Shown: in pieces, positions 1 to 15,013 of the stretch
Layout of the letters: each line of letters starts with the position of its first letter
How positions within the stretch are numbered: the first letter of the stretch is position 1
IMG/VR virus record: IMGVR_UViG_2778261227_000013
Coordinates: 1 to 16,267 of that record
Strand: one strand, 5' to 3'
Origin: a virus
Taxonomy: Duplodnaviria > Heunggongvirae > Uroviricota > Caudoviricetes
DNA: 16,267 nt
The notes under the pieces: model-generated
Database searches by the model: none
Told to the model about the DNA's origin: nothing
What the model saw: only the letters and a program-made list of their open reading frames with translations
Made by a program: the position numbers and the translations under genes

Positions 1-1731
1 TTAGCCTGAGATATATTCGTCCGCTGCGTTCTTGATTATTTTTGACCTAACATTTTTAATGTACGGTATTTTTTTCAGATCATCCCTCGAACAGTGAACG
101 ATATCACCCACTTTAGGATAGGTTTCTTTTATTCGGTCGCATATTGCGTTACTAATTGACAAGCAACTAACCGGATCATCAAGAAGTTGTCCTACAATTG
201 ACCTTGTTGGTACAGGTGTCCCACACTTAGGACAAAACTTCGCATCTCCAGGTAACTCAGCGGAACAAGTTTGACACTCATCAGCTGATTCTTTCAATTT
301 TTCTAAAAAACGCTCTAATTCAGAATCTGCTGCGCCAAATTCTTTATAATCAGCGAGAGATAATAGTGTTATTATCTCCCCGAACTTATTAGATACGAAT
401 GCTTTTTCAGTGAAAAGTAATGATAAATTAACCATGTAGCGCTGACCCGATTTTCGATTAGACATCTTCACGGACCCTTGCTTGGAAAGAACACCAGAAT
501 AACAAAGCAAATCTAGAGACAATCTAAGATTTGGAGAAATAACGGGAGGAAGAACAAAAAAAGCAGATTGGGTTTGAGTCTTTTTCTCTCTGTTATTTTT
601 CAATCTAAGCTCAGGGATAATACACTCCCTAAGAATATCAAGTCCAATGCGAACATGGTGAGAATACTTAGGTAATCGTTTTGAAAGCCCTAAATGATAA
701 GGTAATAATTCTTGATTGACATAATCCTGAGTGCAAGTTAAAAGATCTCTTTCAGTATAACCTTTCTCATATACTTTATTAAATAAATGGAGAAATGCTC
801 TAGGGTTTCCGGATGAAAGATGAATACATTGATCTAGCAAATCACCTTTAGCCAATATTCTCTTTTTTGCTGCTCCTTGTGTGACCCGTTTATCTAATAG
901 ATCACGATATAAACGTCGTGTTCGTTCCCGCCCAATATTTCCAGTTTCGTATCCTCCGAGGTTTATCATCATGGCATCTTGACCAACTTCAAAATTTTTA
1001 CCATACGATGTAATTGACGGATATACAGCCGCCTTAACTGCAATTTTACCGCCATGAAGCAATTTAAATATTTCGAAGAATATTTCTTGCTGTTCTGGTA
1101 TAAAGGTATGAGCAGCCTCATCAAATAAAAAAACAATTCTATTAAGTTGGTATTCTTGAATTATCTCCTTGATGATGTCATTTACATAACTTATATCATT
1201 AACCTTATCTAAAAAATCCTCTCCAATTTCATTCAACAATTTATCTGAAGAAGGATCTCTTGATAACCTTTGAAGCAGATGAATTTTAGATTGTAGAGCA
1301 TCTTTCATCCCAGTTATAGTTTTAATCCCAAAAATTCTTTGAAATGGATCACTGCTATTATTGTCACGAATGACATCTAAAAATATCAACTTTTCGTACA
1401 AAGCTTGTAGTAACTTAGCGCTTACCCATATCTGAAATGCATTTTTATTGTCAGCTTTAACCCCTTCCAGCAAAGTACTGGTTTTGAAATTAACATATAC
1501 CCCCACAATCTTTTTAACAGGAAAATCACTATCTAATTCAGCTTCTGCCGCTCTTAGAAGCATAGACTTTCCAATTCCTCTGGCACCCTGAATCAGATGA
1601 GAGCCCGCTATTTTTAGTTTTGCTACAACATCTTTTTCAAACTCACCAAGAACAGCCAGTTGTTTGACCTGTTTCAACTCAAGATCTTCGGTACGTGCTG
1701 CATGTAATAACTCAGTGTCTAACATAGACAT
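1..1731 (-). CDS. P-loop NTPase with C-terminal zinc ribbon and RpoA alpha-CTD-like helix-hairpin-helix domain; candidate defence/cargo protein
   Basis: Complete 576-aa ORF with ATG at 1729-1731 and TAA at 1-3. Walker A GARGIGKS near residue 50, Walker B-like IVFLFDEAAH, and an SSGNPRAF sensor-like motif. C-terminal CQTCS...CPKCG four-cysteine ribbon, then a segment resembling the RNA polymerase alpha C-terminal domain (LSISNAICDRIKE...VGDIV...DDLKKIPYIKNVRSKII). One-nucleotide TAATG overlap with the upstream gene; GAGGT upstream. Very AT-rich. Confidence 0.8.
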   Translation of the reverse strand: MSMLDTELLHAARTEDLELKQVKQLAVLGEFEKDVVAKLKIAGSHLIQGARGIGKSMLLRAAEAELDSDFPVKKIVGVYVNFKTSTLLEGVKADNKNAFQIWVSAKLLQALYEKLIFLDVIRDNNSSDPFQRIFGIKTITGMKDALQSKIHLLQRLSRDPSSDKLLNEIGEDFLDKVNDISYVNDIIKEIIQEYQLNRIVFLFDEAAHTFIPEQQEIFFEIFKLLHGGKIAVKAAVYPSITSYGKNFEVGQDAMMINLGGYETGNIGRERTRRLYRDLLDKRVTQGAAKKRILAKGDLLDQCIHLSSGNPRAFLHLFNKVYEKGYTERDLLTCTQDYVNQELLPYHLGLSKRLPKYSHHVRIGLDILRECIIPELRLKNNREKKTQTQSAFFVLPPVISPNLRLSLDLLCYSGVLSKQGSVKMSNRKSGQRYMVNLSLLFTEKAFVSNKFGEIITLLSLADYKEFGAADSELERFLEKLKESADECQTCSAELPGDAKFCPKCGTPVPTRSIVGQLLDDPVSCLSISNAICDRIKETYPKVGDIVHCSRDDLKKIPYIKNVRSKIIKNAADEYISG

Positions 1732-2420
1732 TATAAAACTACCTCACTAGATTTAGGAAATGAAGATAGCACTTCTTTTCTTATCTTATGACGAACAATA
1801 TTGGAATTAATTATCATACCCAAAACAACCTCAGCCAGACCTATGAACCTCTCCCAATCTTCACTTTCAAAAGTGAACTTATTAGGCAAATCAGTTTCAA
1901 ATGAGGTTATTTTTCCATGAACGATATCACTTAATTGTCCATAAATTTTCTGTGCTCTTCTCATATCAATAACACATACTTTCCCTCCTATCTTCTCATT
2001 TTCTGTGAAGTAGTCTATATAGCCTTGATTTGTTATATGCTTCAACATATCACTGAAACTTAAGTCTTCATCATGATTTTTCCAAGAATATACAACATGA
2101 GGCATATCCCAAAGATAAATAGATGCGACACCTAGTTCCAAAACTCTCCTTAGAACAATATTAGCTGGTTTATCTATGGCACAGGCAGAAAGATATAAAG
2201 AAGATGACGTATCAGCAATAATCTCACTAAAAATTTTAATACAAACATCATGATGAACTGATGTTTTCTTTTTATTCAAAATTTCAGCAATCGTGTTAAG
2301 AGTGAAAATTGAGATAATTACTTTATCTAATTTTTTATCTTGTATGCCCTGCCATTCACGAAAGTTACTATTGAACTTATCGCTTAGCATATTAATTATC
2401 TCAGTAGGTGATTTGTTCAT
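1731..2420 (-). CDS. Hypothetical protein (229 aa), first gene of the AT-rich cargo operon; no recognisable motif
   Basis: ORF with ATG at 2418-2420 and AAGGGA upstream. Its stop overlaps the start of the downstream NTPase gene by one nucleotide, suggesting translational coupling. Same AT-rich composition as its partner. Confidence 0.7.
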   Translation of the reverse strand: MNKSPTEIINMLSDKFNSNFREWQGIQDKKLDKVIISIFTLNTIAEILNKKKTSVHHDVCIKIFSEIIADTSSSLYLSACAIDKPANIVLRRVLELGVASIYLWDMPHVVYSWKNHDEDLSFSDMLKHITNQGYIDYFTENEKIGGKVCVIDMRRAQKIYGQLSDIVHGKITSFETDLPNKFTFESEDWERFIGLAEVVLGMIINSNIVRHKIRKEVLSSFPKSSEVVL

Positions 2421-2520
2421 TTATTATGCATATCCCTTGTTTTTATCTGTCAATCAATAAGATAATAAGTATAATTTTATAATACAAGAAAATAAAAAGC
2501 CTTATTGATGTGTTTTATTG
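2421..2520 (-). promoter_or_regulatory. AT-rich putative promoter region for the two-gene cargo operon
   Basis: About 100 bp of very AT-rich non-coding sequence directly upstream of the 229-aa gene, at the composition boundary with the island backbone. No specific -35/-10 hexamers were assigned. Confidence 0.3.
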
Positions 2521-2741
2521 CTACTAAAGCGCGCAATGCTCTCCCCAGCAGGCCTGCCCGCTACACAGAGCAGTTTTCATGCAAGTGCATGATAAAAGCC
2601 TATCAGAATCGGCAGTTTTCAACATAAACGCCCACTAGCTACAGAGTGCAATTTTTCGTCATCGGCAATATCAACAACTAAACGCATAAATCAGACAAAC
2701 TGCTACCCGGCTCAATTTTGAGCCGTCTTTTAATCAACGGG

Positions 2742-2921
2742 TTATCGCCGCAGCATGTCCGGTTTCTTCCACTGATACGGCCTCACATCATCATGCTGGT
2801 GGCGTTCCTGTTGCAGCACAACGGAAACAGGCGCTGAACACCTGTTAATTTTGCTTGCTGGTTGTTTGATTTCGGCAATGCTGCGGAGCATCTCCAGCAT
2901 ATCGGCTTCGGTGATGGTCAT
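2742..2921 (-). CDS. Possible small protein (59 aa), hypothetical
   Basis: ORF not in the supplied track (below its size cutoff). ATG at 2919-2921 with AAGGTG about 8 nt upstream; translation MTITEADMLEMLRSIAEIKQ...DMLRR; TAA at 2742-2744. Confidence 0.25.
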   Translation of the reverse strand: MTITEADMLEMLRSIAEIKQPASKINRCSAPVSVVLQQERHQHDDVRPYQWKKPDMLRR

Positions 2922-2952
2922 GATTTACACCTTAGGAAATCTTAGGGGCTGG

Positions 2953-3205
2953 TTGACACTTTCCGGCTTAGGACCTTAACAAATCTTAACATCGCAGGTT
3001 GACACACTTGACACTTTTTCGCGAAAAACCTTATCAAACCTTAGCATTTCTAAGCATGGCAACTTGACACTTTTCGCGATTTTTTCGGCTTTTTGACGTG
3101 GTAAATCTGGCGAAAGGCCAGTAATGGCGCGGCTTACAGCGAGGTTGACACTTTTTCGCGTTCAGAGTGTAAAGTGTCAACCTGGCAAGCTGCTCAACTT
3201 GACAC
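2953..3205. repeat. Array of seven TTGACAC motifs (six direct, one inverted), three extended as TTGACACTTTT(T)CGCG; candidate protein-binding or packaging-recognition array
   Basis: TTGACAC at 2953, 2999, 3008, 3064, 3145 and 3199; inverted GTGTCAA at 3174. A TTGACGTG variant lies at 3093. The array sits immediately downstream of the Nu1/TerS-like HTH gene. Confidence 0.6.
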
Positions 3206-3214
3206 TTTTTGATG

Positions 3215-3742
3215 TCATTGATGGTCTGATTTTTCCCATTCAGCCAGGGCGTTTAGCCCGGCTTCACTCCATGATTCCAGTTCATCGGGACAATCACCTG
3301 CAACATAGCAGAGTTCGCAACGCAGCATACGAATTGCCAGCCTGGCATTACCTCGCAAATTGTATTGTTCAAAGTAATGCTGCCCGTCGCAATCCTCAAG
3401 GCAGATAGCACCATCATCAAGAAAGTGCACTTCCCAGCCTAATTCCCCGGCTGCATCCTGCACACGCTGCTGTATGCCCTCGTCCGTTGCTGGCGCAGGA
3501 ATTTTACCGCCTCTGGCCTTAACTGCTTTCCAGAACTCGCCCCACGTCATTTCCAGCGTTCTCTCTGGCCACATTTCAGAAACTGTGTCTTTTCCCTGTG
3601 CTGGTGGGCTGTTCCGCTGCTCTGTCGCTTCCACATCGATTTTTTTACCGGACATGACCACTTCGCCTTTCTCGATCCAGTCGTAAACTGTCTGGCGGCT
3701 TACGCCTTTGTGTTTGGCATATTCTGCCTTACTCATCAGCAT
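3215..3742 (-). CDS. Nu1/small-terminase-like N-terminal HTH protein (175 aa); possible packaging-redirection (Rpp-like) protein
   Basis: N-terminal SKAEYAKHKGVSRQTVYDWIEKGEV resembles the winged-HTH of lambda Nu1-type small terminase subunits. AAGGGTGAG upstream of the ATG at 3742; 6-nt gap from the upstream gene. Confidence 0.6.
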   Translation of the reverse strand: MLMSKAEYAKHKGVSRQTVYDWIEKGEVVMSGKKIDVEATEQRNSPPAQGKDTVSEMWPERTLEMTWGEFWKAVKARGGKIPAPATDEGIQQRVQDAAGELGWEVHFLDDGAICLEDCDGQHYFEQYNLRGNARLAIRMLRCELCYVAGDCPDELESWSEAGLNALAEWEKSDHQ

Positions 3743-3748
3743 TATGAC

Positions 3749-4420
3749 TCACCCTTCTTTTTCCAGTTGAGCCAGCCGCCCGGATATTTCTTCCAGTTTT
3801 TCCAGGGCTGGCTTGCAGGCCGCATCAATAACGTCCCGGACCATTCCGGCAAGCTGTTCTTCTGCTGTCGGCGTTGTTACTTCCACGCCCGATGGTTTCC
3901 CGCCCTTATCCCAAACACCAAGCGGCACGAGCGCAACGTGATCGATAAGAAATGGCGTACCCTCAATAAAAAAATTGTCCTCGCCCATTACATCAGGAAC
4001 TTCTGCCCCACCTGAGGCACCACAAAACACAACCGACGGACTGGTGGATACCTCCCCTCGGGCTTTCTGGATGTAATCGATGATTTCCTGTCCGTAAATC
4101 CGGCATACGCCCCACACCTCGTCACCGCGAATATACGGCAACATGACGGTGCCAATAATGCGCGACCGTTCGCCCACGTCTTCAAGGGTTTTGCTTTCGG
4201 GATGGTCGATAATGACGGGTACTCCGGCGCAACGTTCCAGGAACTGCGGATTGAGATAAGTTTGCGGTGAACGCCAGACAAATTCTTTTTCTTCGGCGCG
4301 GTAGGCCATTCCGGTTCCTGTGATACGCAGGTTAACCAGCCACATGTTGGAAAACTGATAAGGCGACGGTAGCTGTCCGTCCCGAATCTGCTTCGCCGCC
4401 TCAATTTCTGTTAAAAGCAT
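3749..4420 (-). CDS. Hypothetical protein (223 aa)
   Basis: Long ORF in operon arrangement with the downstream HTH gene. No clear Shine-Dalgarno before the ATG at 4420, so the start is uncertain. An imperfect hairpin lies in the upstream intergenic region. Confidence 0.6.
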   Translation of the reverse strand: MLLTEIEAAKQIRDGQLPSPYQFSNMWLVNLRITGTGMAYRAEEKEFVWRSPQTYLNPQFLERCAGVPVIIDHPESKTLEDVGERSRIIGTVMLPYIRGDEVWGVCRIYGQEIIDYIQKARGEVSTSPSVVFCGASGGAEVPDVMGEDNFFIEGTPFLIDHVALVPLGVWDKGGKPSGVEVTTPTAEEQLAGMVRDVIDAACKPALEKLEEISGRLAQLEKEG

Positions 4421-4484
4421 AATGTTATCCGGTTATAAGCAATAAGCCCCGCCAAATCCGGCAGGGCTGAACTCAGCACGTTTT

Positions 4485-5063
4485 TCATGCCCCCGCGAGG
4501 CTTGCAGTGTTAATTTTGACCAGGCGACGGGGAGGGATTTTGAAAGCACTAAGCCAGTTATTCGGATCCCCCTGATATTCAGTAATCCGCCGTCCGGCTT
4601 CATCCATTCTTACGGTTTTACGCAAATAGCCCGGCGTATTTTCCACAGCCCACTGAACACTGTCTTTTGCAGCCTGGTAAATCTGATCTTCCAGCACCGC
4701 CAGCGTTGCAGAATCTGAAACGGAACGAATATCCACATCACTGAATTTTTTAGCCAGCTTCTGTGCACCAATTAATGCACGCTTGCGGTAATCCATCGAC
4801 TTTTCGCCAGCAAACGGGGCCGGAGCGCGACGCCCCATATTGCTGTATGCGGAATCCGCTTTGGCCTGGGCTTCTGCCAGTGAGGATTCATCTTCGACTG
4901 ACGCGACGATGTTTTGATTAGCGTTATCCTCTTTTATGAAATCCTGTGCGGGGATCGCATTCAGAATTTCGATAATCTCCTGCGGAGTGCTTCCCTGCGA
5001 CTCTGACAGAGCGTTAACCACCTCCATCAGTTTTAATCGCAAATCTTCTTTGCTTGCTGGCAT
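4485..5063 (-). CDS. Hypothetical protein (about 192 aa)
   Basis: The track ORF begins at a GTG at 5072. An ATG at 5063 preceded by GAGAGGTGG is the more likely start (MPASKEDLRLK...). Confidence 0.6.
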   Translation of the reverse strand: MPASKEDLRLKLMEVVNALSESQGSTPQEIIEILNAIPAQDFIKEDNANQNIVASVEDESSLAEAQAKADSAYSNMGRRAPAPFAGEKSMDYRKRALIGAQKLAKKFSDVDIRSVSDSATLAVLEDQIYQAAKDSVQWAVENTPGYLRKTVRMDEAGRRITEYQGDPNNWLSAFKIPPRRLVKINTASLAGA

Positions 5064-5102
5064 TTTTACCACCTCTCTTTTTTCACCAAAAAATCACGAC
5101 CA

Positions 5103-5276
5103 TCAGGCCGGACGTTCTACGGGATAAAGCGCCCGCTGCATTAAACGCCGGGCGACCTCATGAATGCTCGGAGCAATCCCCAGCGGAGAATTGCGGCGTT
5201 CCTCGTCCTGGATGCGCTGTAATGCTTCAATCTGATCACGAGCGAGTAAAACGGGTTTCACGCTGGCTTTTCTCAT
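5103..5276 (-). CDS. Small hypothetical protein (about 57 aa)
   Basis: AGGAG lies 8 nt upstream of the ATG at 5276 (MRKASVKPVLLARDQIEALQ...). The track's longer start at 5300 lacks a suitable ribosome-binding site. Confidence 0.5.
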   Translation of the reverse strand: MRKASVKPVLLARDQIEALQRIQDEERRNSPLGIAPSIHEVARRLMQRALYPVERPA

Positions 5277-5410
5277 AGTCATATCTCCTGAACAAAACAA
5301 TGGTTATGATTGCATAAACTGAAATGACGATCTACATCATTGCAATTTATGAAACGATAACGCATGATGATCGCGTTCTTCCCATTGACTTCAATCACCT
5401 GAAAAACAAA

Positions 5411-5472
5411 GCCCGCAACACTTCTGGCTGCGGGCTTTTTACTGGCACAAAAAAGCCGGGAAAAATCCCGGC
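5411..5472 (-). terminator. Tandem intrinsic-terminator-like hairpins downstream of the PerC-like gene
   Basis: GCCCGCA...TGCGGGC hairpin at 5411-5435 flanked by T/A runs on both sides. GCCGGG-aaaaat-CCCGGC hairpin at 5455-5472, followed on the minus strand by TTTTTT. Confidence 0.6.
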
Positions 5473-5477
5473 CTCCG

Positions 5478-5765
5478 TCACTGACTGCAATTTTTCGATC
5501 CAGGGTATTTCCTGAATGCCTTACCATTGGGCTGATGTAATCCCATCCCGGCATGTGCCCGGCTGATGGTTTCGCGCATCTCCCCGAAATTATCCTGCCT
5601 TGCTGGTGGGCGTGCTGCCTTGCGGATACATTCCGCGCGACGTTTTGCCGCCTGTTCCCGTGCCTTGTCATCATTCGCCAGCATGATGACCTCAGCCCAC
5701 CGCGCCGCCGCTCTCCGGTACAGACCACGCGCTTCCAGTGCTTCCGCTTTGCTGTCGTGAATCAT
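5478..5765 (-). CDS. PerC-like small transcriptional regulator (95 aa), tentative
   Basis: Translation MIHDSKAEALEARGLYRRAAARWAEVI... matches my recollection of the PerC-family N-terminal signature. ATGA overlap with the stop of the upstream ProQ/FinO gene. Confidence 0.55.
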   Translation of the reverse strand: MIHDSKAEALEARGLYRRAAARWAEVIMLANDDKAREQAAKRRAECIRKAARPPARQDNFGEMRETISRAHAGMGLHQPNGKAFRKYPGSKNCSQ

Positions 5766-6346
5766 GCGCCTGTTTTCTCCTTTGCTACCCGGCGCTGACG
5801 TTTGCGCTTCTCATTCAGCGCCACCAGCCGCGTTTCTGCGTCCTGTTGTTCCTGTGGTGTCACCTCGCCGCACGGCTGGCCTTTCAGGTCGTAGCGTACC
5901 CCACCAGCCATTAAGGCGCGGTAATAGCGCGGACACTGCGCATAAGATGCCAGCGTCGCACGTAATGCCCCTGGCCCGAATGCCAGCCCCCTGACGGCGA
6001 GATCCTGCATCAGGTCGTCGAATACCCCCACCTTTAGCGGCTTCGGTGCTTCCCGGCTGAATAATTCTGGCCACAACTCAGTGAGGCGGTTAACGCGTCT
6101 GCGGTTTTTTCGCTGCCGTTTGGTCATATGCCGCCACGGTGTCGCCCCTGTGGGCTTCTGCTGCGCTTTCTGGTTACCGGGCATCACTTTATGCGCCGAT
6201 GTGGTTTTATCCTGCTGCTGCTGCTGCGCCGCCTTCGTCGTTTTCTGCGGCGTGCCGTAAATGCCTTTCGGTTTTCTGTTAATGGTCAGCTTAGTCATGC
6301 TTTGCCCCATCGTTTTTACTGATTGTTTCATATCCGGTACTTTCAT
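5762..6346 (-). CDS. ProQ/FinO-domain RNA-binding protein (194 aa; start uncertain)
   Basis: Segment LTELWPELF...PLKVGVFDDL...LRATLASYAQCPRYYRALMAGGVRYDLKGQPCGEVT parallels the ProQ N-terminal FinO domain (PLKIGIFQDL...RVDLDGNPCGEL) as recalled. Basic, Q-rich N-terminus. No good ribbon-binding site before the first ATG. Confidence 0.75.
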   Translation of the reverse strand: MKVPDMKQSVKTMGQSMTKLTINRKPKGIYGTPQKTTKAAQQQQQDKTTSAHKVMPGNQKAQQKPTGATPWRHMTKRQRKNRRRVNRLTELWPELFSREAPKPLKVGVFDDLMQDLAVRGLAFGPGALRATLASYAQCPRYYRALMAGGVRYDLKGQPCGEVTPQEQQDAETRLVALNEKRKRQRRVAKEKTGA

Positions 6347-6351
6347 CTTCT

Positions 6352-6637
6352 GGGTAGAGGGGTAGACGGAGGGTAGATAACAAAAAATAGTCCTCTACCC
6401 ACTTAACTTAATGAAAAAAAACAACTTTCACACATTAGGTAGAGGGGTAGACCGTAAAATAGAAAAGTTTGAAACTTACTTTCTTACAATCTGTGTTTTC
6501 CTCTCGCTGTATAAAAAGTTTTTTGAGCGGGGATGTTGTCTACCCCTCTACCCACTTCTCTGAAAGCCTTGTGCTACGAGGGATTCAGCGGGTAGACAAT
6601 AAAAAATCACCATCTACCCTGTGTCTACCCATCTACC
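6352..6637. repeat. Iteron array GGGTAGA(G/C/T) in direct and inverted copies with A-rich spacers; putative replication origin
   Basis: Direct copies at 6352, 6360, 6371, 6438, 6445 and 6590. Inverted copies at 6393, 6538, 6546, 6612, 6623 and 6631. A-rich spacers between clusters. Located immediately downstream of the primase/helicase gene. Confidence 0.75.
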
Positions 6638-6654
6638 TGTTACGGGTATTACTC

Positions 6655-8403
6655 TTATAAAAATTCCTCGGTTCTCTCCGTTTGTATAACGTTGGTTTGT
6701 ATTCGTCCTTTAAAACCTCTTGTCAGGTATTCAGCCCCATATTCTCTTGCTGCTGACTTCATGGCCTTACCAAAATCACCGACACTTAATATTTCTTCTT
6801 CCCCCATATACTCCATAAAGGCGAGATATAGTCTGTACAGGCTTGTACGCGGATTAAGATCAGTTAATCTCTTACCGCCTCCCATCATCATCCCATGCGG
6901 TTCATCAAGAAATGCAAGCGCCGCACATAACCCAATGACAGGATCAGTTTCCTGTTTTATTTTCAGAGCTTCGGCACCGTCGCGCTGCTCCAACAATAAT
7001 TCCCGTGCTTTTTCTGGATCGGAAAAGTTAGCCAGTAATCGACGAATAATGACAGGTATTTCCGCCGCTATCTTTTGCGGTAACTCTTTATCCTTTTCGG
7101 TCTCCCTTACAATATTATCGAACCGAAAAATTACACGTCGACGCGCAACGCCTCCGGCCCGTTCGGTGAATGTCATCGGCACGTTATTTGTTGCCAGCAC
7201 GACGGACCTGATAATTGTTGTGAAACGCTTTTCATATTTCGGGTTAATTTCAACTGGATCTCCACCCGTTATTTTTTTGATGCCGGATCCTTCACCTGTA
7301 TATTTCGGCTGGTCTGCCAGGACAATAAGACGACTTCCGACAACCTGCGCACGCCCGCCAGCATCATCAAGCGATGTCATTTCAGCGCTTACCGTGTTCT
7401 GTTTCCCTGCCAGAAGGGTGGCTATGTGCGTGATTGTGCTCTTGCCGCTCCCGCCTTCCCCTGTGGCCTCAATAAACATCTGCCAGTCGTACCGGTTCGC
7501 CATAATCATGTACAGCGCGGCGCATATACGCATCATCTTTCGCGGGTCTTTTCCTGCGGCGTGATCAAGCCATTTATGAAAGTTTGGCGCGTTGTCGCGG
7601 ATGTTCTCCCCTGGTACTGGTGGCGTGTACTCAATGCCGTTATGCGTGGTGATCCAGTTATCCGGCGAGTGCGGGGAAAATTCGCCAGTTTTCATGTCAA
7701 GCACGCCATTAGAGAACGGCAATAAATCACCTGACGGTTCCCCCATTGGCCTGGCCATAACTTTTAAAGCATCCACTGCATTACTTATTGCTCTCCGACT
7801 AAACGATGTTCCGTTTTCTTCGTAAATAGCCACCATTTCACGACTAAGATCCAGTGTGCTTACCGGAACCCAAAAATCATCGCGCCAGACGTGGACAACC
7901 TCACTCTCCTGATTCATTGCTACATCCTGAAATCGTTCAGCTAAAAGTTTTGCCCTTTGGCTGTCCGCCATTCTGGAAAGAGATATTTTGTGTTTTTTCT
8001 CGGTCCTTCCTGACAGAATTTCTCCGCGCTCAGCCTGTTCGCGGATCCGTTGCAGGTAGTCGCGCCAGTTCTCCGGTTCCTGGTCGGTGATGCCTTTGTA
8101 TAATTTCGCCTCCTGTACGCCAGCCAGCGCCAGCTTTTCAGCGATAGCATTGATCTGGATTGGCTCGATCTCCCCCGCGAGATAGACACGCGCAAAGCGG
8201 CGTTTCTCGTCAATAATGCGGATATTCGCCAGGTCTGCCAGTTGCTTTGGTCCCAGATAAACAGGTGGCACGTTATCGCAGTGTTTTCGTCCTTCGCTTT
8301 CAATCCAGTGTTGGGCATGGGCGTAAGCATCCGTCCCGGCAAAAATGATTACCTCAGTGAATTTATCCTTCGGCTGATATTTCAAACTCGGTGCGTTTTT
8401 CAC
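6655..8403 (-). CDS. P4-type primase/helicase-like replication protein with D5-like NTPase (582 aa)
   Basis: Walker A GEGGSGKST and Walker B-like LIVLAD within a long ORF, followed directly by the iteron array. Family assignment is from recalled resemblance to phage/plasmid P4-family primase C-terminal regions. Start overlaps the upstream gene by 4 nt. Confidence 0.8.
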   Translation of the reverse strand: MKNAPSLKYQPKDKFTEVIIFAGTDAYAHAQHWIESEGRKHCDNVPPVYLGPKQLADLANIRIIDEKRRFARVYLAGEIEPIQINAIAEKLALAGVQEAKLYKGITDQEPENWRDYLQRIREQAERGEILSGRTEKKHKISLSRMADSQRAKLLAERFQDVAMNQESEVVHVWRDDFWVPVSTLDLSREMVAIYEENGTSFSRRAISNAVDALKVMARPMGEPSGDLLPFSNGVLDMKTGEFSPHSPDNWITTHNGIEYTPPVPGENIRDNAPNFHKWLDHAAGKDPRKMMRICAALYMIMANRYDWQMFIEATGEGGSGKSTITHIATLLAGKQNTVSAEMTSLDDAGGRAQVVGSRLIVLADQPKYTGEGSGIKKITGGDPVEINPKYEKRFTTIIRSVVLATNNVPMTFTERAGGVARRRVIFRFDNIVRETEKDKELPQKIAAEIPVIIRRLLANFSDPEKARELLLEQRDGAEALKIKQETDPVIGLCAALAFLDEPHGMMMGGGKRLTDLNPRTSLYRLYLAFMEYMGEEEILSVGDFGKAMKSAAREYGAEYLTRGFKGRIQTNVIQTERTEEFL

Positions 8404-8690
8404 TTCTTACCTCCCGCAACCAACATTGCCCGGATTTTTTTTATATTCGTGGCTGCACGTCTTGCCACTGCCTGTTGTTTGTTTTCCACCAGAATAAAAT
8501 CACGCTCAAACTGACGGCGCGGCATTACGCAGTCATATTCGTAAGCCTCACGGCGGTAGGTGATATTGCCTGGCGTAACGTGACGAATAACCACTCGTCC
8601 CCCACTTCTGGTGTCGCGGTAAATATCTCCGTGTCTGATTTCAGGCCGAGAGAGACCGCTGGCAGTAAAGCCAGAATTTTTCTTTTTCAT
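8400..8690 (-). CDS. Hypothetical protein (96 aa)
   Basis: AGGAAAA upstream of the ATG at 8690; ATGA-type 4-nt overlap with the primase gene. Confidence 0.6.
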   Translation of the reverse strand: MKKKNSGFTASGLSRPEIRHGDIYRDTRSGGRVVIRHVTPGNITYRREAYEYDCVMPRRQFERDFILVENKQQAVARRAATNIKKIRAMLVAGGKK

Positions 8691-8694
8691 GGTT

Positions 8695-8895
8695 TTATTT
8701 TCCTGTCAGCAGTTCCGGTTTTATTTCCGCACGAATACAAAGTTCAGAAAAAAATTCAGGAGAACCAACAATCTCATTACTTTTCAGTCGGCATTGTGAT
8801 TTCACTTTCCCTTTATCCAGGTAAACCAGTACGCGTCCGGTGAAATCATCTGGCACATTAAGCACTACGGGTACATGCGCTTCATGATTATGCAT
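8695..8895 (-). CDS. Hypothetical small protein (66 aa), paralog-like to the N-terminus of the 9114..9479 product
   Basis: GGAGGA upstream of the ATG at 8895. Begins MHN and carries FTGRVLVYLDKGKVKS, similar to FTGQLLVNVENGRVVS in the 9114..9479 product. Confidence 0.6.
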   Translation of the reverse strand: MHNHEAHVPVVLNVPDDFTGRVLVYLDKGKVKSQCRLKSNEIVGSPEFFSELCIRAEIKPELLTGK

Positions 8896-9121
8896 GGCTT
8901 ACATCCTCCGTGAATTTTCTTCTGTAACGCGTCTCTGCCACATATTCCGCATAGTCCGACGCAATACTAAGAATCATTTCACCCTCTGACTTGTAGCCAC
9001 TGGTATTGATAAGAAAATATGCAGCTTTCATCATGTCAGCAACGCTCAACAATGCGCCCGCTGCATCTTCCGGTGCGCCATCAAATTCCCGTTTCAGGGA
9101 ATTAAAACGATCATCACGCAT
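8888..9121 (-). CDS. Hypothetical small protein (77 aa)
   Basis: AGGGGGG upstream of the ATG at 9121; 8-nt overlaps with both neighbouring genes. Confidence 0.6.
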   Translation of the reverse strand: MRDDRFNSLKREFDGAPEDAAGALLSVADMMKAAYFLINTSGYKSEGEMILSIASDYAEYVAETRYRRKFTEDVSHA

Positions 9122-9479
9122 GTTTACCCCCCTGAATGACCTGATAACCGCAACTGGTCAGCAATTCCATAAATTCCGGCAATGTGCCGAAACAGTAATC
9201 ATCACACAGACGTTCGCGGGATACTTCAACGCCGTTTTCGTAGTGACTCACCATACACCCGGTAAAACGCAGATCATCATCGTGATGGCACGTTGACGGC
9301 TTAATCAGTCGCGCACGCTCCGCCAGTGCCAGGAATGCTTCAACGCTTCCGGCAATTGCACCATCCGGCAGGTGATAATTACTTACTACGCGTCCATTCT
9401 CTACATTGACCAGTAGCTGCCCGGTAAATTTCTCATCAAACTGAATGCTGTTAAGTTCAGAAATAGCCGAATTATGCAT
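9114..9479 (-). CDS. Hypothetical protein (about 121 aa)
   Basis: AGGAGGTG upstream of the ATG at 9479 (MHNSAISELN...). The track's longer ORF start at 9497 is less likely. Confidence 0.6.
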   Translation of the reverse strand: MHNSAISELNSIQFDEKFTGQLLVNVENGRVVSNYHLPDGAIAGSVEAFLALAERARLIKPSTCHHDDDLRFTGCMVSHYENGVEVSRERLCDDYCFGTLPEFMELLTSCGYQVIQGGKHA

Positions 9480-9696
9480 GGTGCACCTCCTGCACATCAG
9501 CCATGATAATTTTTCCGGCCTTATCCAGTGCCTGATCGGCTTTTAGCTGCACAAATGCTAAATAATGGGAGATGCATTCTGATTCTCTGACTGCGTGTTT
9601 ATGCGCCACACCAGCGATAGCTGAAATCTCAATAAGTGAATCCATCAGCGTTTTGATAGCGTCTACCGCTGCATCAGGCCATGTTACATTACACAT
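9472..9696 (-). CDS. Hypothetical small protein (74 aa)
   Basis: AGGAGGTGGAG upstream of the ATG at 9696; 8-nt ATGTGTAA overlap with the upstream gene. Confidence 0.6.
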   Translation of the reverse strand: MCNVTWPDAAVDAIKTLMDSLIEISAIAGVAHKHAVRESECISHYLAFVQLKADQALDKAGKIIMADVQEVHHA

Positions 9697-10054
9697 GCTC
9701 CACCTCCTGGCGAATACGGGCAGCGAATACCATCACGCAGCCATCAGGGGATTGCTGGCGTGCTTCCTGTTCGCTGGTGGCCTCGATGTGAATTACGCGC
9801 GGTTGTGCTGTGCTCAGGGCGATAAAACGCCAGATAAAATTGTTCTCGCATTTCTGAATAAACAGCGTGTTTTCTTCGCGCCCTTTCCATGTTGCCGAGA
9901 TATAGCCCATGTCATTGAGCATCTCGCAGGCATCAACCAGCGTATCAGCAGCTACGTGTACAGTGTTTTTACCGTCAGCTATGCAATCACGGTGCACCGC
10001 CAGGAAGGTGTATATAAATTTAGGGTGAGTTTGGGTATGCTGTGTTCCAGCCAT
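9689..10054 (-). CDS. Hypothetical protein (121 aa), first gene of the leftward operon
   Basis: ATG at 10054 preceded by GAGGT. It is the C-terminal part of the 510-aa track ORF, whose upstream portion is judged non-coding or shadow. Confidence 0.6.
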   Translation of the reverse strand: MAGTQHTQTHPKFIYTFLAVHRDCIADGKNTVHVAADTLVDACEMLNDMGYISATWKGREENTLFIQKCENNFIWRFIALSTAQPRVIHIEATSEQEARQQSPDGCVMVFAARIRQEVEHV

Positions 10055-10143
10055 AATCGTTACCTCATTTAACGGTTTGGTTAGACGCCCCGCTACTGCC
10101 GCAAACAGTTCGGGGCGTTGTCGTTTACATCCTCTTACTGAGG

Positions 10144-10219
10144 TGTGATTTAAATTAAATTTAACTGAATCACAGGTCAAGTATTTTTTGTGATTCTTTT
10201 TTGTGTATACTGAATCACA
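10144..10219. promoter_or_regulatory. Divergent promoter/operator region with two 31-bp palindromes TGTGATT-N17-AATCACA
   Basis: Palindrome 1 at 10144-10174 and palindrome 2 at 10189-10219. Palindrome 2 encloses a TATACT -10-like hexamer (10206-10211) for the rightward gene. A leftward TTGACC -35-like hexamer (complement of 10175-10180) lies beside palindrome 1. Confidence 0.6.
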
Positions 10220-10241
10220 TCTTTTGTTTAGGAGAATGCAC

Positions 10242-10547
10242 ATGGCAAAAAACACTATCAACGACAAATCAAAACAGATTTCAATTCGTATCCCACATGA
10301 TGCTTTTGAAGGCATGGAATCCGTAAAACTGGACGGTGAAAGCAACGCCGGATTCATAGTAACCGCCATGCGCGGTGAGATCGCCCGCCGCCAGGCAGAA
10401 GGAAGCGGAGAAAATCCCCTGGTTTCTTCGCTCGATGCGCTGGCGCAGGTGGAAAAAATCGGAGTCAAAGCTGCCGAGGAGATCGGGCAGCTCGTCACCG
10501 TCGCACGTGAAGAACTCCAGCGCCGCAAGGCCAAAGAATCAGAATAA
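10242..10547 (+). CDS. Ribbon-helix-helix-like (Arc/MetJ/CopG-type) DNA-binding regulator (101 aa), tentative
   Basis: AGGAG 8 nt upstream of the ATG at 10242. N-terminal KQISIRIPHDAFEGMESV...NAGFIVTAMRGEIARRQ has the strand-helix-helix pattern; the C-terminus is charged and coiled-coil-like. Confidence 0.6.
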   Translation: MAKNTINDKSKQISIRIPHDAFEGMESVKLDGESNAGFIVTAMRGEIARRQAEGSGENPLVSSLDALAQVEKIGVKAAEEIGQLVTVAREELQRRKAKESE

Positions 10548-10604
10548 TAACTATCATCGCCGTGGTGTGAGGAACTCCGGCGCATTGCTTTACAGGTACA
10601 CAGA

Positions 10605-10799
10605 ATGACCAACAAAGAATCAACCAATACACCATCACCGGCACGGAAAAGACGGCGCAGAAAGATAGAGCATGAATCAGAAAGATTCGCGCCATGTGCT
10701 TTTGCCCTTGAGCAATTCCTTAAAGAGTACAGGCGCACAAAAATGGGATCGCATACCTGGAAAACATCGCGGCATGGCAATGTTAAAGAGCATGAATAG
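10605..10799 (+). CDS. Possible small basic protein (64 aa), hypothetical
   Basis: ORF downstream of and co-oriented with the RHH-like gene; weak AGGT upstream. Composition is plausible (K/R/E-rich), whereas the opposite-strand frame here is Cys/Ser-rich. Confidence 0.3.
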   Translation: MTNKESTNTPSPARKRRRRKIEHESERFAPCAFALEQFLKEYRRTKMGSHTWKTSRHGNVKEHE

Positions 10800-10829
10800 C
10801 CCACCAGCAAGCCAGCACACTGATCACAT

Positions 10830-11221
10830 TGCCCACCAGCCGCAAATCTGGCATTGTTGGCAATGTGTTCAAGTGTGTAGCTTTCCCACTGGTGGCCCTC
10901 TGCAGTCGCCTTTGTTTTATCCAGAACGAAATCAGACATCAGATTGATCAGCACCTGGTGACCTGACAAAATCGCATCAGTCGCGCCACCAGCAAAATTT
11001 TTTGCTTTCCGGACAGCGTGGCTAACGGCATTTTGCAGCAAAATATTCTGCATTTCTGGCGTACTGTAGTAACAGTGATCAGCGCCTTCACTCTGTGCGA
11101 CCACAACGCTATAATCTGCCTCGTAGACAGTAAGCAATATGGCGCAGTAGGCTATTCGTTCACAAAGGCGCTCCGGCAACGGGGCGCTTTCTCTTTTTGT
11201 AACGGTCAGAGCGTTACACAT
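10830..11221 (-). CDS. Candidate gene with unresolved 3' end (5' part of the 510-aa track ORF); possibly a remnant
   Basis: ATG at 11221 preceded by GGAGGA, with an 8-nt ATGTGTAA overlap to the antirepressor gene stop. The first roughly 130 codons look protein-like, but there is no in-frame stop until 9689. The 3' coordinate is approximate. Confidence 0.3.
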
Positions 11222-12014
11222 GGCTGTTTTCCTCCATGCGACGGGCTAACCAACGCTGCGAAAGACGAATTAATTCAGCCTTCCGCTGGTGGTAGTCCTG
11301 GCCTAACTCAATCAGCGTGATATTGCTCTGCTCAAGGTAAGAAAGGTGCTCAAGCTGCAACGTGCTCATGTGGTCGCGTGGTTCGCCTGTAATGCCGTTC
11401 GCCAGTGCCCACTGTTTTGCAGTCATGCCACCCAGCACGATACGCGCCAGCATGCTCGCTTCCGTGGTGTAGTGGTGCTGGAGTGTGTTTTTACCCAGTT
11501 CAGCCCGGTACGCCTCCAGCGCGGCACACATTGGCTTAAAGTAGCTGGCAACTGTGATACGGGCTTTCAGTTCCCGGCGTAACGCTGCGGAACGAACAGG
11601 CGCAACCTTGTGTAGCTCCTCCTCGCATTTGATAAAGTACTGGCGAACGGCGCGGCCCTGTTCGGTACGTTCGACCATCGCCAGTTCTTTCGCCATGTTC
11701 ACTGTGATGATGTACTCAAGAGCGGTTTGCTGGCGAGATTTTGCGCTCACCGGATCGGGTCGGCTCAAATATTCAACAACCTCATAATCCACGCCTTCCG
11801 TGAACCCGTATTCTTCAATGCGCCCCTTGATCCACGAACGGAAAACGCGCCCTACACCTAACGCCTTATGTAACGCTCTGGCGCTAACAATAGTGGTTTC
11901 ACTCCCGCCAATAACGCCGGAAATAATCGGGATAATTTCGCCGAAATTTTGCAGATTCTGGTTTTCAGTCCGAACGAAGCCCCGCCCCTGTACGGGCGTT
12001 TTTGGAAATTTCAT
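11214..12014 (-). CDS. Phage antirepressor-like protein (AntA N-terminal / KilAC-type C-terminal domains), 266 aa
   Basis: N-terminal ...TIVSARALHKALGVGRVFRSWIKGRIEEYGFTEGVDYEV... resembles the AntA/Bro-N type antirepressor signature as recalled. AGGAG 7 nt upstream of the ATG at 12014. Confidence 0.7.
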   Translation of the reverse strand: MKFPKTPVQGRGFVRTENQNLQNFGEIIPIISGVIGGSETTIVSARALHKALGVGRVFRSWIKGRIEEYGFTEGVDYEVVEYLSRPDPVSAKSRQQTALEYIITVNMAKELAMVERTEQGRAVRQYFIKCEEELHKVAPVRSAALRRELKARITVASYFKPMCAALEAYRAELGKNTLQHHYTTEASMLARIVLGGMTAKQWALANGITGEPRDHMSTLQLEHLSYLEQSNITLIELGQDYHQRKAELIRLSQRWLARRMEENSHV

Positions 12015-12091
12015 AAAAACTCCTGCTATCGAATTAAGTTACTTTTATTTGCTGGTGGATAGCTGGGGGCAATAGCCCCGTAGCCATTTAA

Positions 12092-12289
12092 TCAGGTAGC
12101 TGTTCCGCGTGATTCCGCAATACGCTGATTAATCCACTCGTCAATTTCACTCTCAACGAAAGCAATAGCTCGCGAGCCAATTTTAACTGATGCAGGAAAT
12201 TTACCTTGCCCCATAAGGCGATAAATCCATGCCTTGCTATATCCAGTTCTACGCTGAACTTCTGTTAAACGAATAAGCGTATTTGACAT
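12092..12289 (-). CDS. alpA: AlpA-family phage transcriptional regulator (65 aa)
   Basis: MSNTLIRLTEVQRRTGYSKAWIYRLMGQGKFPASVKIGSRAIAFVESEIDEWI matches the AlpA/MerR-like HTH family signature (YRL...GKFP..K.G.RA.A..ESE...WI). GAGGT upstream of the ATG at 12289. Confidence 0.85.
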   Translation of the reverse strand: MSNTLIRLTEVQRRTGYSKAWIYRLMGQGKFPASVKIGSRAIAFVESEIDEWINQRIAESRGTAT

Positions 12290-12358
12290 ATATTTACCTC
12301 ATAACGTCTACTCAATTTGACGAGGTAATCATGGCACAGAAATAACGAATATTTTCAT

Positions 12359-12502
12359 ACCCTCAGGCCTAATGGTTACCGGAAGGAAATTAACCCTAAG
12401 GGTGATGGTAATCGGGAGGAAATCTACCCTAAGGGTGATGGTAAAATTGACGGGGAAGATAAAAAAATACCCTCAGGGTAACAGTAAATCATCCTCAGGG
12501 TA
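12359..12502. promoter_or_regulatory. Upstream region of alpA with five ACCCT(A/C)AGGG palindromic boxes, including a 31-bp tandem duplication
   Basis: Boxes at 12359, 12393, 12426, 12469 and 12492. Copies at 12381-12411 and 12414-12444 are near-identical (GGA[A/G]GGAAAT[T/C][A/T]ACCCTAAGGGTGATGGTAA). Confidence 0.55.
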
Positions 12503-12516
12503 TGCGGTATGGTGCG

Positions 12517-13314
12517 TTAATCCGGCTTTGCGTTCTTTTGGCTGTTGTCTCGGTTAATAGGGCAGGCAGTCCTCTCTATGAGCGTTGCAAGTGCATTACT
12601 TGCCCCCCACTGCTTAAGCTCCCTGGTTATCGCTTCTTGATTTCCCCTGGTGGCAAAATCATTTTCTGGATCGTAATTGGCCCACTCTCTGTTTCTAATC
12701 TCAATAGCCTTAGCTAATGGGTCTTTATCCCAGTATTTATATAAGTGTATCGGGCGCTCTTGCTCTAACTGCTCTATCCTTGCCCTTAACTCTGCGTTTT
12801 CTTTTTCCAGCATTGCGATTTGGGATAATAAATCATCCTCTGTACGCAACTCTTTCTTTTCAATATCGCGTCCTTGTGCCTCGTCATTTTCAGAAGAGTT
12901 AGCGCCTTCCAGCTTCGTTAACGCGTCAAGGACATCGGGAAAAATTGCGAAAATTTCACCCCTTATAAATCCAATGTTCTCAAATTCGGGATCTTCCCAA
13001 TAACCGGACACCAGAAAACCATTTTCATCCCTCTCACCAGGTAAACAACCACGTTTCCGAACCGCATTCAGATTTCTATAAAGAACATCATAATCAAATT
13101 CATCCCGATACGGGTTACAAAAAGATTCCAACAGCTTAAATTCATTTACTGTGTACAGGCGGATATGTTCTCCGCTTATTCTCCTGAGTATCCAAGTTAT
13201 GACATCTGAAACATCATAATCATCACCAGCGACCTTAAGCACGACCTCAAGAAATTCACGTAAAGAAATAAAATCTTTTTTGTATTCGTTTAATTCGGCA
13301 TGAATATCAATCAT
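12517..13314 (-). CDS. Hypothetical protein (about 265 aa) with central coiled-coil; AT-rich cargo-like gene between int and alpA
   Basis: The track ORF starts at a GTG at 13320; an ATG at 13314 preceded by GAGGTG is more likely. Coiled-coil-like segment LSQIAMLEKENAELRARIEQLEQE. Visibly AT-rich relative to its neighbours. Confidence 0.65.
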   Translation of the reverse strand: MIDIHAELNEYKKDFISLREFLEVVLKVAGDDYDVSDVITWILRRISGEHIRLYTVNEFKLLESFCNPYRDEFDYDVLYRNLNAVRKRGCLPGERDENGFLVSGYWEDPEFENIGFIRGEIFAIFPDVLDALTKLEGANSSENDEAQGRDIEKKELRTEDDLLSQIAMLEKENAELRARIEQLEQERPIHLYKYWDKDPLAKAIEIRNREWANYDPENDFATRGNQEAITRELKQWGASNALATLIERTACPINRDNSQKNAKPD

Positions 13315-13442
13315 ACGCACACCTCAGCGTCCTCTACTGTAGTGGCTGTACCAGTCCGTCGAGGTGTACGGATTTTCGGGAGCGACCCTAGACACAGCCT
13401 TTTCTTTCGTCGCTCAAAGTCTACTACTGTATACGCAACCAG

Positions 13443-14657
13443 TCATCCACATTTTCCGAACTTGCCATGCACCACGTTACCGCCATGTTCGAGCGAATCC
13501 ATATAGTCGGCGTACCACTGGAGCATCTCGCGCCGCCCGTCCAGATATTGCGCATGATTGTACGTGCCACGAATTGAGTTCTTATCAACGTGTGCAAGCT
13601 GCGTTTCTATCCACGCGGTGTTATAGCCCTGCTCATGTAAAATCGTGCTCATGGTGTGCCGGAATCCATGACCAGTAACCTTTCCGTTATAGCCGATGCG
13701 TTTAAATACTTGGTTTATGCTAGCCTCGCTCATTGTTTTCCTTGGATCATTACGGCCGGGAAACATAAGCGGATAATTACCAGTTAATTCTTTAATCTGC
13801 CCAATAAGAGAAAGAGCCTGCTTAGACAAAGGCACCACATGAGGGCGACGCATTTTCATCCGTGAAGCAGGTATCTCCCAGATAGCCTTGTTGAGATCGA
13901 TTTCATCCCATAATGCACCGCGCAGTTCGCCAGTTCGCAAACCAGTGATAATCAGTAGACGAGCCGCCATAACAACCAATGCACTTCCTGAGTAACTGGA
14001 CAATGCCTTGAAAAAATCAGGCAATTCTTTGGCTGTGAGGAAAGGATAATGATTAGATTCATGGCCTTGCATCGCGCTAGTAAGATCTGGGGCAGGGTTA
14101 TACTCTGCGCGACCAGTGACTATTGCATAGCGGAAAACTTCCCCGCACCGCTGCCTCACTTTTTTGGCTTTTTCTGTAGCACCGCGCCCCTCGATGCGTC
14201 GCAGCACATTCAGAAGTTCAAGTGGTTTGATTTCGGCAATTGGTTTTTTGCCAATGTAAGGGAACACATCTTTGTTGAAGGCTTCGAGGATATCTGAAGC
14301 ATAACCAGCAGACCATTTTTTTAATTTGCTGCTGTGCCACTCAAGGGCAATATCTTTGAAGGTATTGTTTAACTGCGTTTCCCGGGCAATCTTTTCCTCT
14401 CGTTTCGCTTCCATCGGATCGATACCCCCAGCGATACCCCTTTTAGCTTCTTCACGTTTTGCACGAGCATCAGCCAAGGTAACTTCAGGATACACACCTA
14501 GTGCTAACAGCTTCTCTTTACCAGCTACACGATATTTAAAGCGCCAGTATTTTCCTCCACTAGGTTTTACCAGGAGATACAGACCACCACCATCAGCCAG
14601 CTTGTAAGCCTTCTCTTTTGGCTTGGCAGTGTCTATTTGACGGGCATTGAGTTTCAC
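13443..14657 (-). CDS. int: Tyrosine recombinase / phage integrase (P4-type, with N-terminal arm-binding domain), 404 aa
   Basis: N-terminus AKPKEKAYKLADGGGLYLLVKPSGGKYWRFKY is typical of P4-like integrases. C-terminal catalytic region contains HGFRHT and a terminal Y (GTYNHAQY). GTG start at 14657 with GGAGGT upstream. Directly adjacent to the tRNA 3' end. Confidence 0.93.
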   Translation of the reverse strand: MKLNARQIDTAKPKEKAYKLADGGGLYLLVKPSGGKYWRFKYRVAGKEKLLALGVYPEVTLADARAKREEAKRGIAGGIDPMEAKREEKIARETQLNNTFKDIALEWHSSKLKKWSAGYASDILEAFNKDVFPYIGKKPIAEIKPLELLNVLRRIEGRGATEKAKKVRQRCGEVFRYAIVTGRAEYNPAPDLTSAMQGHESNHYPFLTAKELPDFFKALSSYSGSALVVMAARLLIITGLRTGELRGALWDEIDLNKAIWEIPASRMKMRRPHVVPLSKQALSLIGQIKELTGNYPLMFPGRNDPRKTMSEASINQVFKRIGYNGKVTGHGFRHTMSTILHEQGYNTAWIETQLAHVDKNSIRGTYNHAQYLDGRREMLQWYADYMDSLEHGGNVVHGKFGKCG

Positions 14658-14823
14658 TTGGGGGTACCTCCACTAAACCGAACAGCAAATACCCCCAAAA
14701 GTACCCCCAATTGACTGTAGATTTTGGGGTACTTAAGTAGACATCAAAAGACTAAAAGGGGCGCTAACATGCGGATTATAAGAGGTTTTTAAATACTTGA
14801 GTAGACTTGGGGAGACGTTAGAA
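14658..14823. other. att-proximal region between integrase and tRNA with candidate arm-type repeats
   Basis: Direct repeats TACTT(A/G)AGTAGAC at 14730-14742 and 14794-14806. GGGGTAC at 14661 and 14726, with inverted GTACCCC at 14701. Confidence 0.45.
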
Positions 14824-14899
14824 TGGTGCCGATAATAGGAGTCGAACCTACGACCTTCGCATTACGAATGCGCTGCTCTACCAACTGAGCTATATCGGC
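14824..14899 (-). tRNA. thrW: tRNA-Thr (anticodon CGU)
   Basis: The reverse complement reads GCCGATATAGCTCAGTTGGTAGAGCAGCGCATTCGTAATGCGAAGGTCGTAGGTTCGACTCCTATTATCGGCACCA: a 76-nt cloverleaf-compatible sequence with a CGT anticodon and encoded CCA end. Confidence 0.96.
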
Positions 14900-15013
14900 C
14901 CTGAAAGGACATGTTCACGAACGTGAATCACGGTGGACAAGGTTAAAACTAACCGGGCGATGCGTCAATGGCCTTGTGAATCAAATGGCTACTTTTGCAT
15001 CACCCGGTTTTAT

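Follow-up and report, generated by a model that had tools for sequence, protein, structure and literature searches.

A mobile two-gene module of an Escherichia coli phage satellite pairs an ORC/Cdc6-like ATPase with a divergent DUF5677 protein: a candidate anti-phage system

The IMG/VR virus record IMGVR_UViG_2778261227_000013, analysed here over its positions 1 to 16,267 (the window, 16,267 nucleotides (nt) in length), carries at its low-numbered end two adjoining genes on the minus strand. The upstream gene, named A, encodes a protein of 229 amino acids (aa), and the downstream gene, named B, encodes an ATPase of 576 aa. The minus-strand sequence across their junction is TGAGGTAGTTTTATAATG. 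Exactly one base, the final A of TAA, is shared by the stop codon of A and the ATG start codon of B, and a GAGG lies 10 nt upstream of the B start. The A-B pair is a candidate two-gene system, flagged by computation, whose partner protein belongs to an unusual family of deep conservation.

Gene A is a genuine gene. A first-pass annotation of this DNA, made from the letters only, had proposed the 229-aa open reading frame (ORF), and this call stands: the frame begins with ATG, it has 78 homologues, nearly all of 219-233 aa (E-values to 1e-145), and the chance probability of a 229-codon open frame at the local base composition is ~1.3e-8. Because the homologues keep an N-terminal MNKxPxEI, the ATG at position 2420 was taken as the start of A. 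The same annotation had described a single-nucleotide coupling to the neighbouring nucleoside triphosphatase gene and a matching composition of the two genes, and both descriptions are correct, since the overlap is exactly one base and both genes are AT-rich, with GC contents of 31.6% for A and 36.0% for B versus 48.5% for the remainder of the island in which they lie. It had also named two observations that would speak against its reading, namely that the ORF is a pseudogene or not conserved in related elements, or that it belongs to a housekeeping family; in related elements the ORF was found to be intact as well as conserved, and it shows no homology to a housekeeping family. The A protein is soluble and acidic (isoelectric point (pI) 5-6.4), and none of its hydrophobic segments reaches transmembrane strength; a role as a membrane-pore effector was rejected on these grounds.

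Comparison of genomes revealed that a B relative lies directly downstream of an A relative, on the same strand, in 32 of the 32 loci examined. These loci belong to Pseudomonas, Vibrio, Paenibacillus, Desulfobacter, Methylophilus, Electrothrix, Nitrospirae, Nitrospira, Ectothiorhodospira, Sulfuricurvum, Chitinispirillaceae, Scytonema, Coleofasciculus, Limisphaerales (Verrucomicrobiota), Bacteroidota and Flavobacteriaceae and, for more distant relatives, to Bacillus mycoides, Listeria seeligeri, Brevibacillus and Pontibacter; the pairing spans Proteobacteria, Bacillota, Cyanobacteria and Bacteroidota. The A-B pairing is obligate, and the earlier suggestion that the two genes act as one unit is upheld at the level of pairing, over many phyla. 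Among the other loci, the distance between the called A stop and B start ranges from a 17-nt overlap to a gap of ~12 nt, and the B relative has a zinc ribbon and a helix-hairpin-helix (HhH)-like tail in nearly all of the 32. The flanks of the pair share nothing between loci and include P2/P4-like genes, integrases, endonuclease genes or plain housekeeping genes. In Bacillus mycoides, for example, the pair adjoins a BglII/BamHI-type endonuclease gene and a MutH-like gene, and in Vibrio it stands between matE and gcvP, among housekeeping neighbours and with no mobile element; pairs without a surrounding mobile element are also found in Paenibacillus, Brevibacillus and Chitinispirillaceae. When 1.84 billion representative proteins were searched exhaustively with a profile (E <= 0.001), the A family proved small, comprising 222 clusters, nearly all of them standalone proteins of 215-245 aa, and no fusion of A was present among these clusters. 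One match of the representative search, P0263 (1535 aa), was discarded as a false positive arising from a repeated methyltransferase-like RVLELGCG motif. From the 32/32 pairing and the near-uniformly standalone, fusion-free clusters it follows that A is dedicated to this type of ATPase as a partner, rather than being a promiscuous module. Within the same pairs, identity to the window proteins is 50-78% for B and 33-60% for A, and B is the more conserved member of every pair, A diverging ~1.5x faster. Identity of B to the E. coli protein amounts to 64-78% in several other phyla and to 50-55% in Cyanobacteria and Bacteroidota, which is unusually high conservation for a mobile accessory gene.

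B is an AAA+ ATPase with intact Walker A and Walker B motifs that is predicted to be active. It matches the Pfam family PF24389 (ORC-CDC6-like) with 51.7 bits (E 7.8e-14), above the cut-off of 27 bits, although the match covers only model positions 28-309 of 571, corresponding to the N-terminal half. Alignments of B across phyla (A3 and A4) show 71-73% mean column identity. The protein is basic (pI 8.6, versus 6.4 for A), and Pfam scans of B and its orthologues detected no nuclease or other effector domain. Its C-terminal tail has no direct Pfam match in the window protein itself; at the same position, the tail of the Bacillus mycoides orthologue matches HHH_5 (28.2 bits, E 2.6e-6) and RNA_pol_A_CTD (E 1.4e-3), and that of another orthologue matches HHH_2 (E 0.017), suggesting from sequence that the window B tail is HhH-like as well. 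A profile search of the PDB with B returned a short zinc-ribbon match only, and a search with the tail alone returned nothing. An AlphaFold model of B, built on 24 rather similar sequences, was poor, with a predicted local distance difference test (pLDDT) score of 59, and was set aside.

The first-pass annotation had seen no recognisable family in A, which is only partly right: A can be assigned as a remote member of DUF5677 with a predicted HEPN-like fold. The window protein itself stays below the threshold, with 16.3 bits against Pfam DUF5677 (PF18928; E 0.011, profile positions 2-83 of 166; gathering cut-off 27.1 bits), but the DUF5677 model is matched by 21 of 25 A family members (best E 5.7e-6), and seven A homologues carry a precomputed PF18928 assignment; A is therefore placed, on sequence grounds, as a remote and peripheral branch of DUF5677. 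The model of A is confident and all-helical, and HEPN domains, those of sacsin and Roquin among the best, are its closest structural matches. Foldseek of this model against the PDB and BFVD gave nothing at E <= 0.001, a PDB sequence search with the A profile gave only noise (E >= 0.6), and no HEPN sequence model matches A or its family members. Alignment by hhalign of the A superfamily profile with the MAE_28990 HEPN protein of a sister satellite gave a probability of 0.2%, although a single-sequence template makes this a weak test.

Alignments show that R91, Y160 and H168 are invariant across the A superfamily, down to ~20% identity, and that E66, D70, E95, Y134 and G169 are nearly invariant. 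In the model, the conserved residues appear as i/i+4 stripes on three helices (E66/D70; R91/E95; Y160/S164/H168), and they may form one catalytic or ligand-binding pocket on one face of these helices. The invariant histidine sits in an S-[DE]-x-V-H-G motif. The window protein reads Y160-G161-Q-L-S-D-I-V-H168 and has no arginine 4-6 residues before the histidine; at the R-x6-H position, occupied by G161 in the window protein, R or K is present in 34% and G in 45% of 195 family members. The invariant R91 lies on a different helix from H168. Membership of A among the canonical HEPN RNases was rejected by this test of the Rx4-6H motif.

The genes around the pair belong to an island of ~14.8 kb, inserted at tRNA-Thr(CGU) beside proA, which is, to judge from its gene set, a phage satellite of E. 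coli (Table 1). The A-B module is the last feature before the far end of the island. Megablast of the window against 5426 complete E. coli genomes found positions 1-2530 in only four genomes and the backbone from 2531 onward in ~170, homology to 165 other E. coli genomes beginning at 2531. The same slot of sister satellites holds other cargo. One version is PARIS (AriA, E 3e-43; AriB, E 4e-22); a second combines a type II methyltransferase, a DUF262 protein resembling NsnA/PD-T4-2_A and a HEPN protein; others are a DUF4747 pair and a protein of 662 aa that is annotated as RNA-binding and gives weak pAgo-related matches in PADLOC. The DUF4747 pair, which PADLOC leaves unmatched, may be a further candidate defence system. 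Because sister satellites carry different cargo here, including PARIS, the slot is regarded as a variable cargo slot holding defence systems. The A-B pair, which resides in this hotspot, is horizontally mobile, as follows from its completely differing flanks, its AT-richness relative to the island, and its occurrence in 4 of 5426 genomes versus ~170 for the backbone.

Within the island, the pair looks like a transcription unit of its own, because in strain TUM9757 a GC-rich hairpin with a T-run follows directly after the B stop, just outside the window (L001 14966-14997), and a weak hairpin (2708-2725) follows the last backbone ORF. The former is likely the operon terminator. A promoter for the pair would lie in 2421-2530, where the consensus scan found no minus-strand sigma-70 site; GC content is 29% across 2001-2500. 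An exact attR copy of the tRNA 3' end was not found next to the module. A degenerate 15-nt copy of the tRNA-Thr 3' end (GGTGCGATAATAGGA) occurs in TUM9757 ~830 nt beyond the window start, past an integrase remnant (L001 14158-14173), and is likely the old attR. TUM9757 and WWCOL-236 carry identical, intact proteins. The copy in SCU-316 (L036 1501-4745) is 97.9% identical, and its annotation shows several short hypothetical ORFs in place of two genes; this fragmentation may reflect decay or assembly errors in AT-rich homopolymer runs.

Table 1. Coordinates of the A-B module, its parts and the surrounding satellite
Feature	Position in the window	Strand	Remarks
Gene A	1731..2420	(-)	ATG start, 229 aa; soluble, acidic, all-helical; divergent DUF5677 member with predicted HEPN-like fold
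Conserved core of A, residues 56-175	1896..2255	(-)	Alignments A1 and A5; helix positions from model
A/B translational-coupling junction	1729..1745	(-)	GAGG 1742-1745; TAA 1731-1733; ATG 1729-1731
Gene B	1..1731	(-)	576-aa ORC/Cdc6-like AAA+ ATPase; stop codon at 1-3
AAA+ core of B, residues ~38-290	862..1620	(-)	Pfam and alignment
Walker A of B, GARGIGKS	1564-1587	(-)	Invariant across phyla
Walker B of B, VFLFDE, residues 200-205			Invariant across phyla
Sensor-2-like SSGNPRAF of B, residues 306-313			After the AAA+ core; SGNPRAF invariant
CxxC...CxxC zinc ribbon of B (C486, C489, C500, C503)	223..276	(-)	Zn_Ribbon_1, E 2.1e-6; Cys invariant
C-terminal tail of B, residues 515-576	4..189	(-)	Probably HhH- or RNA polymerase alpha-CTD-like; presumed DNA-binding
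AT-rich 5' region of the cargo	2421..2530	(-)	Presumed own promoter/leader; 2530/2531 is the border with the conserved satellite backbone
Helix-turn-helix (HTH), small-terminase-like gene	3215-3742
Primase-type replication gene	6655-8403
int-alpA RNA motif	13331-13398	(-)	Rfam, 45.5 bits; just downstream of the integrase gene
Integrase	13443-14657
tRNA-Thr(CGU)	14824-14899	(-)	Integration site
proA	15014-16267
Other satellite genes			AntA-type antirepressor, DUF4222, Icd-like, ProQ/FinO, PerC, capsid-related DUF2213/phrog_6216
Sister slots equivalent to window 1-2530			L031 3703-5659; L002 4767-7865; L029 4173-5665; L030 3662-5650

Several further features were noted in the satellite backbone. 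Just upstream of the small-terminase-like gene, positions 2951-3215 contain seven or more copies of TTGACACTTT(TT), some in each orientation, with ACCTTAnnAAATCTTA repeats between them, and these repeats are probably a protein-binding array of the satellite (a pac site, an operator or an origin). On the minus strand, positions 9689-11221 hold a 510-codon open frame without a Pfam or PADLOC match, in which RefSeq annotates only the last ~121 codons (Icd-like) and two opposite-strand genes. This frame is still open in strain 537-20 (512 aa, an in-frame 6-nt difference, 96.9% nucleotide identity), which is unexpected for a non-coding frame. The adjacent minus-strand ORFs 3749-4420 and 4485-5072 match positions 115-328 and 409-545 of the 545 positions of phrog_6216 and represent either a split gene or a modular capsid-related satellite gene.

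Published data on defence genes bear on both members of the pair. The exact B protein, WP_061352522.1, is listed in the DefensePredictor supplement as a "predicted novel defense gene" with a log-odds of 9.56, the stringent cut-off being 4 (PMC13092281). The same supplement places DUF5677 in the C-terminal part of Aditi DitA (residues 276-427 of UniRef50_A0A096AIV3) and lists one E. coli DUF5677 protein as a predicted defence gene in its own right (PMC13092281). DUF5677 is also enriched beside serine recombinases that mark defence loci. A text search of the table of cloned units in PMC13092281 gave no entry for the A-B transcription unit, and literature searches returned no paper describing a pair of an ORC/Cdc6 protein and a DUF5677 protein and no mechanism for Aditi DitA. 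The placement of the A-B pair in a defence context is supported by the sister slots with PARIS or a restriction-like module, by the endonuclease neighbours in B. mycoides and by the log-odds value of B.

The best explanation of these observations would be that A and B constitute an autonomous two-subunit candidate anti-phage system in which B is an ATP-driven, DNA-binding switch and A is its obligate partner acting on nucleic acid, an account that is favoured here with a confidence falling a little short of even. The pair would be one mobile two-gene operon that travels as accessory cargo of a satellite at tRNA-Thr, within the defence hotspot of this element. B would probably bind DNA and act as a switch, driven by ATP, for the recognition of DNA that invades or replicates, and A would be a soluble, helical, DUF5677/HEPN-like small subunit whose R91, Y160 and H168, together with E66, D70 and E95, would line a pocket. 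Once triggered, B would activate or position A, presumably through physical contact, and A would then act on nucleic acid in a HEPN-like, non-canonical manner, putatively with nuclease chemistry, and halt phage growth; its effector role and the defence function itself are likewise inferred. An effector or catalytic role of A is favoured because no effector domain is present in B, the set of polar residues in A is invariant, the fold is HEPN-like and DUF5677 links A to Aditi. A bolder version is tentative and rather doubtful: an ORC/Cdc6-type loader with zinc-ribbon and HhH readers might sense phage DNA or replication intermediates and switch on a DUF5677 subunit with a non-canonical, HEPN-derived pocket of R-Y-H and E/D/E residues, making the pair a new multi-phylum anti-phage system.

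Several results weigh against this explanation. A is matched by no PADLOC, PHROGs or NCBIfam model, and B is recognised by these collections only marginally. The evidence for the fold of A, drawn from a model, is weak, and the canonical HEPN Rx4-6H motif is not conserved in the window protein and the 195 family members. A literature search for an experimental test of the A-B pair found none, and a different DUF5677 ORF, expressed alone in Enterococcus faecalis, gave no protection (PMC12632615). Searching phage and plasmid collections with A by tblastn gave no match. The acidic pI of A is unusual for a free nucleic-acid enzyme, and A is never exchanged for another effector across the 32 loci, which, with its faster evolution, is a pattern more typical of sensors. 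A sensor or a regulator would agree equally well with the faster evolution of A, its acidic pI and the lack of the canonical motif. It is possible, if on balance unlikely, that the pair is a defence system in which A serves for sensing, specificity or regulation (as a HEPN-like adaptor that binds a ligand or a nucleotide without catalysis, or as an inhibitor restraining B) and B itself interferes, for instance by loading onto phage DNA or origins, by clamping them, or through ATP consumption. The contrast of an acidic A with a basic B agrees with such a division of labour, as does the presence of sacsin and Roquin among the best structural matches. The HEPN domains of sacsin and Roquin are not known to be catalytic. 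B, however, has no recognisable toxic or nucleolytic domain, and the strict invariance of the R, Y and H and of the E/D/E set down to 20% identity resembles an active site more than a fast-adapting recognition surface.

An explanation outside immunity appears improbable, namely that the pair serves the mobile element in replication initiation or DNA loading, in maintenance or addiction, or in manipulation of the helper phage by the satellite. Classical initiators, loaders and regulators of transposition include ORC/Cdc6-type ATPases with DNA-binding tails, as discussed in PMC10853773, the pair is located next to packaging genes in a satellite, and the conservation of B goes far beyond what is usual for a defence gene. 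The pairs standing alone between housekeeping genes in Vibrio, Paenibacillus, Brevibacillus and Chitinispirillaceae nevertheless speak against it, as do the sister satellites, most of which lack the pair and have defence systems in the slot instead, and the satellite's own primase-type replication gene. That A is a frame open by chance or a functionless, decaying pseudogene is hardly credible and is excluded by the conservation data: the annotation of one of the four E. coli copies, that of SCU-316, as short fragments would agree with decay, but the breaks may be assembly errors, the TUM9757 and WWCOL-236 proteins are identical and intact, full-length homologues with the invariant residues occur across many phyla, and the chance probability of the frame is negligible.

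If the bolder version, with the non-canonical HEPN-derived pocket, is true, it would supply the first function for DUF5677, including the C-terminal domain of Aditi DitA. If the pair protects, it would be a compact two-gene system distributed from Enterobacteria to Bacillota, Cyanobacteria and Bacteroidota, with an ATPase unusually conserved for an immune gene, and would provide an experimental handle on DUF5677, a domain of the validated, mechanistically opaque Aditi and of other predicted defence genes. The strict pairing and the invariance of R91, Y160, H168, E66, D70 and E95 allow precise point mutants to be designed. In addition, another variable cargo slot in the phage satellites of E. 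coli is documented, which can be mined for further systems.

Among known systems, Aditi is related to the pair through A, which is remotely related to the DUF5677 domain in the C-terminal part of DitA, and DUF5677 proteins are enriched in defence contexts. A differs in being a standalone 229-aa domain whose partner gene encodes an ORC/Cdc6-like ATPase in place of DitB; the DUF5677 link gives a family name and no mechanism, and neither A, nor 25 A homologues, nor B match the PADLOC models of DitA and DitB, even at E <= 1. DS-41 and ATPase_Sll1717 share with B a weak N-terminal P-loop similarity, with 27 bits for DS41_1 (residues 16-115) and 25 bits for ATPase_Sll1717, scores far below the respective cut-offs of 370 and 75 bits, and membership in DS-41 (NF053860, DS41_1_antiphage, >=370 bits) was rejected. 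DS-41 is listed by DefensePredictor as a single-gene AAA ATPase system (PMC13092281), whereas A and B form an obligate pair. A parallel in architecture is offered by ORC/Cdc6- or STAND-type ATPases that bear a HEPN domain, the HEPN-fused DUF499/BrxC-like ATPases among them (PMC12839542). The predicted helical-bundle core of A, with HEPN domains as best structural matches and an invariant histidine, is likewise placed before an ORC/Cdc6-type ATPase in a defence context; in contrast to those fusions, A is a separate gene and not an N-terminal domain, the Rx4-6H motif is absent, and the arginine (R91) is on another helix. PARIS consists of the AriA ATPase and the AriB Toprim nuclease. It resembles the pair as a two-gene operon of an ATPase and a smaller partner in the very same slot of sister satellites, but has no sequence relationship to it, B being an ORC/Cdc6-like AAA+ protein and not of ABC/AAA_21 type, and A being all-helical and not a Toprim/DUF4435 protein. 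By the model tests the A-B pair is no member of Aditi, PARIS or DS-41, and by analogy it resembles the ATPase-plus-partner defence operons that occupy satellite and prophage hotspots.

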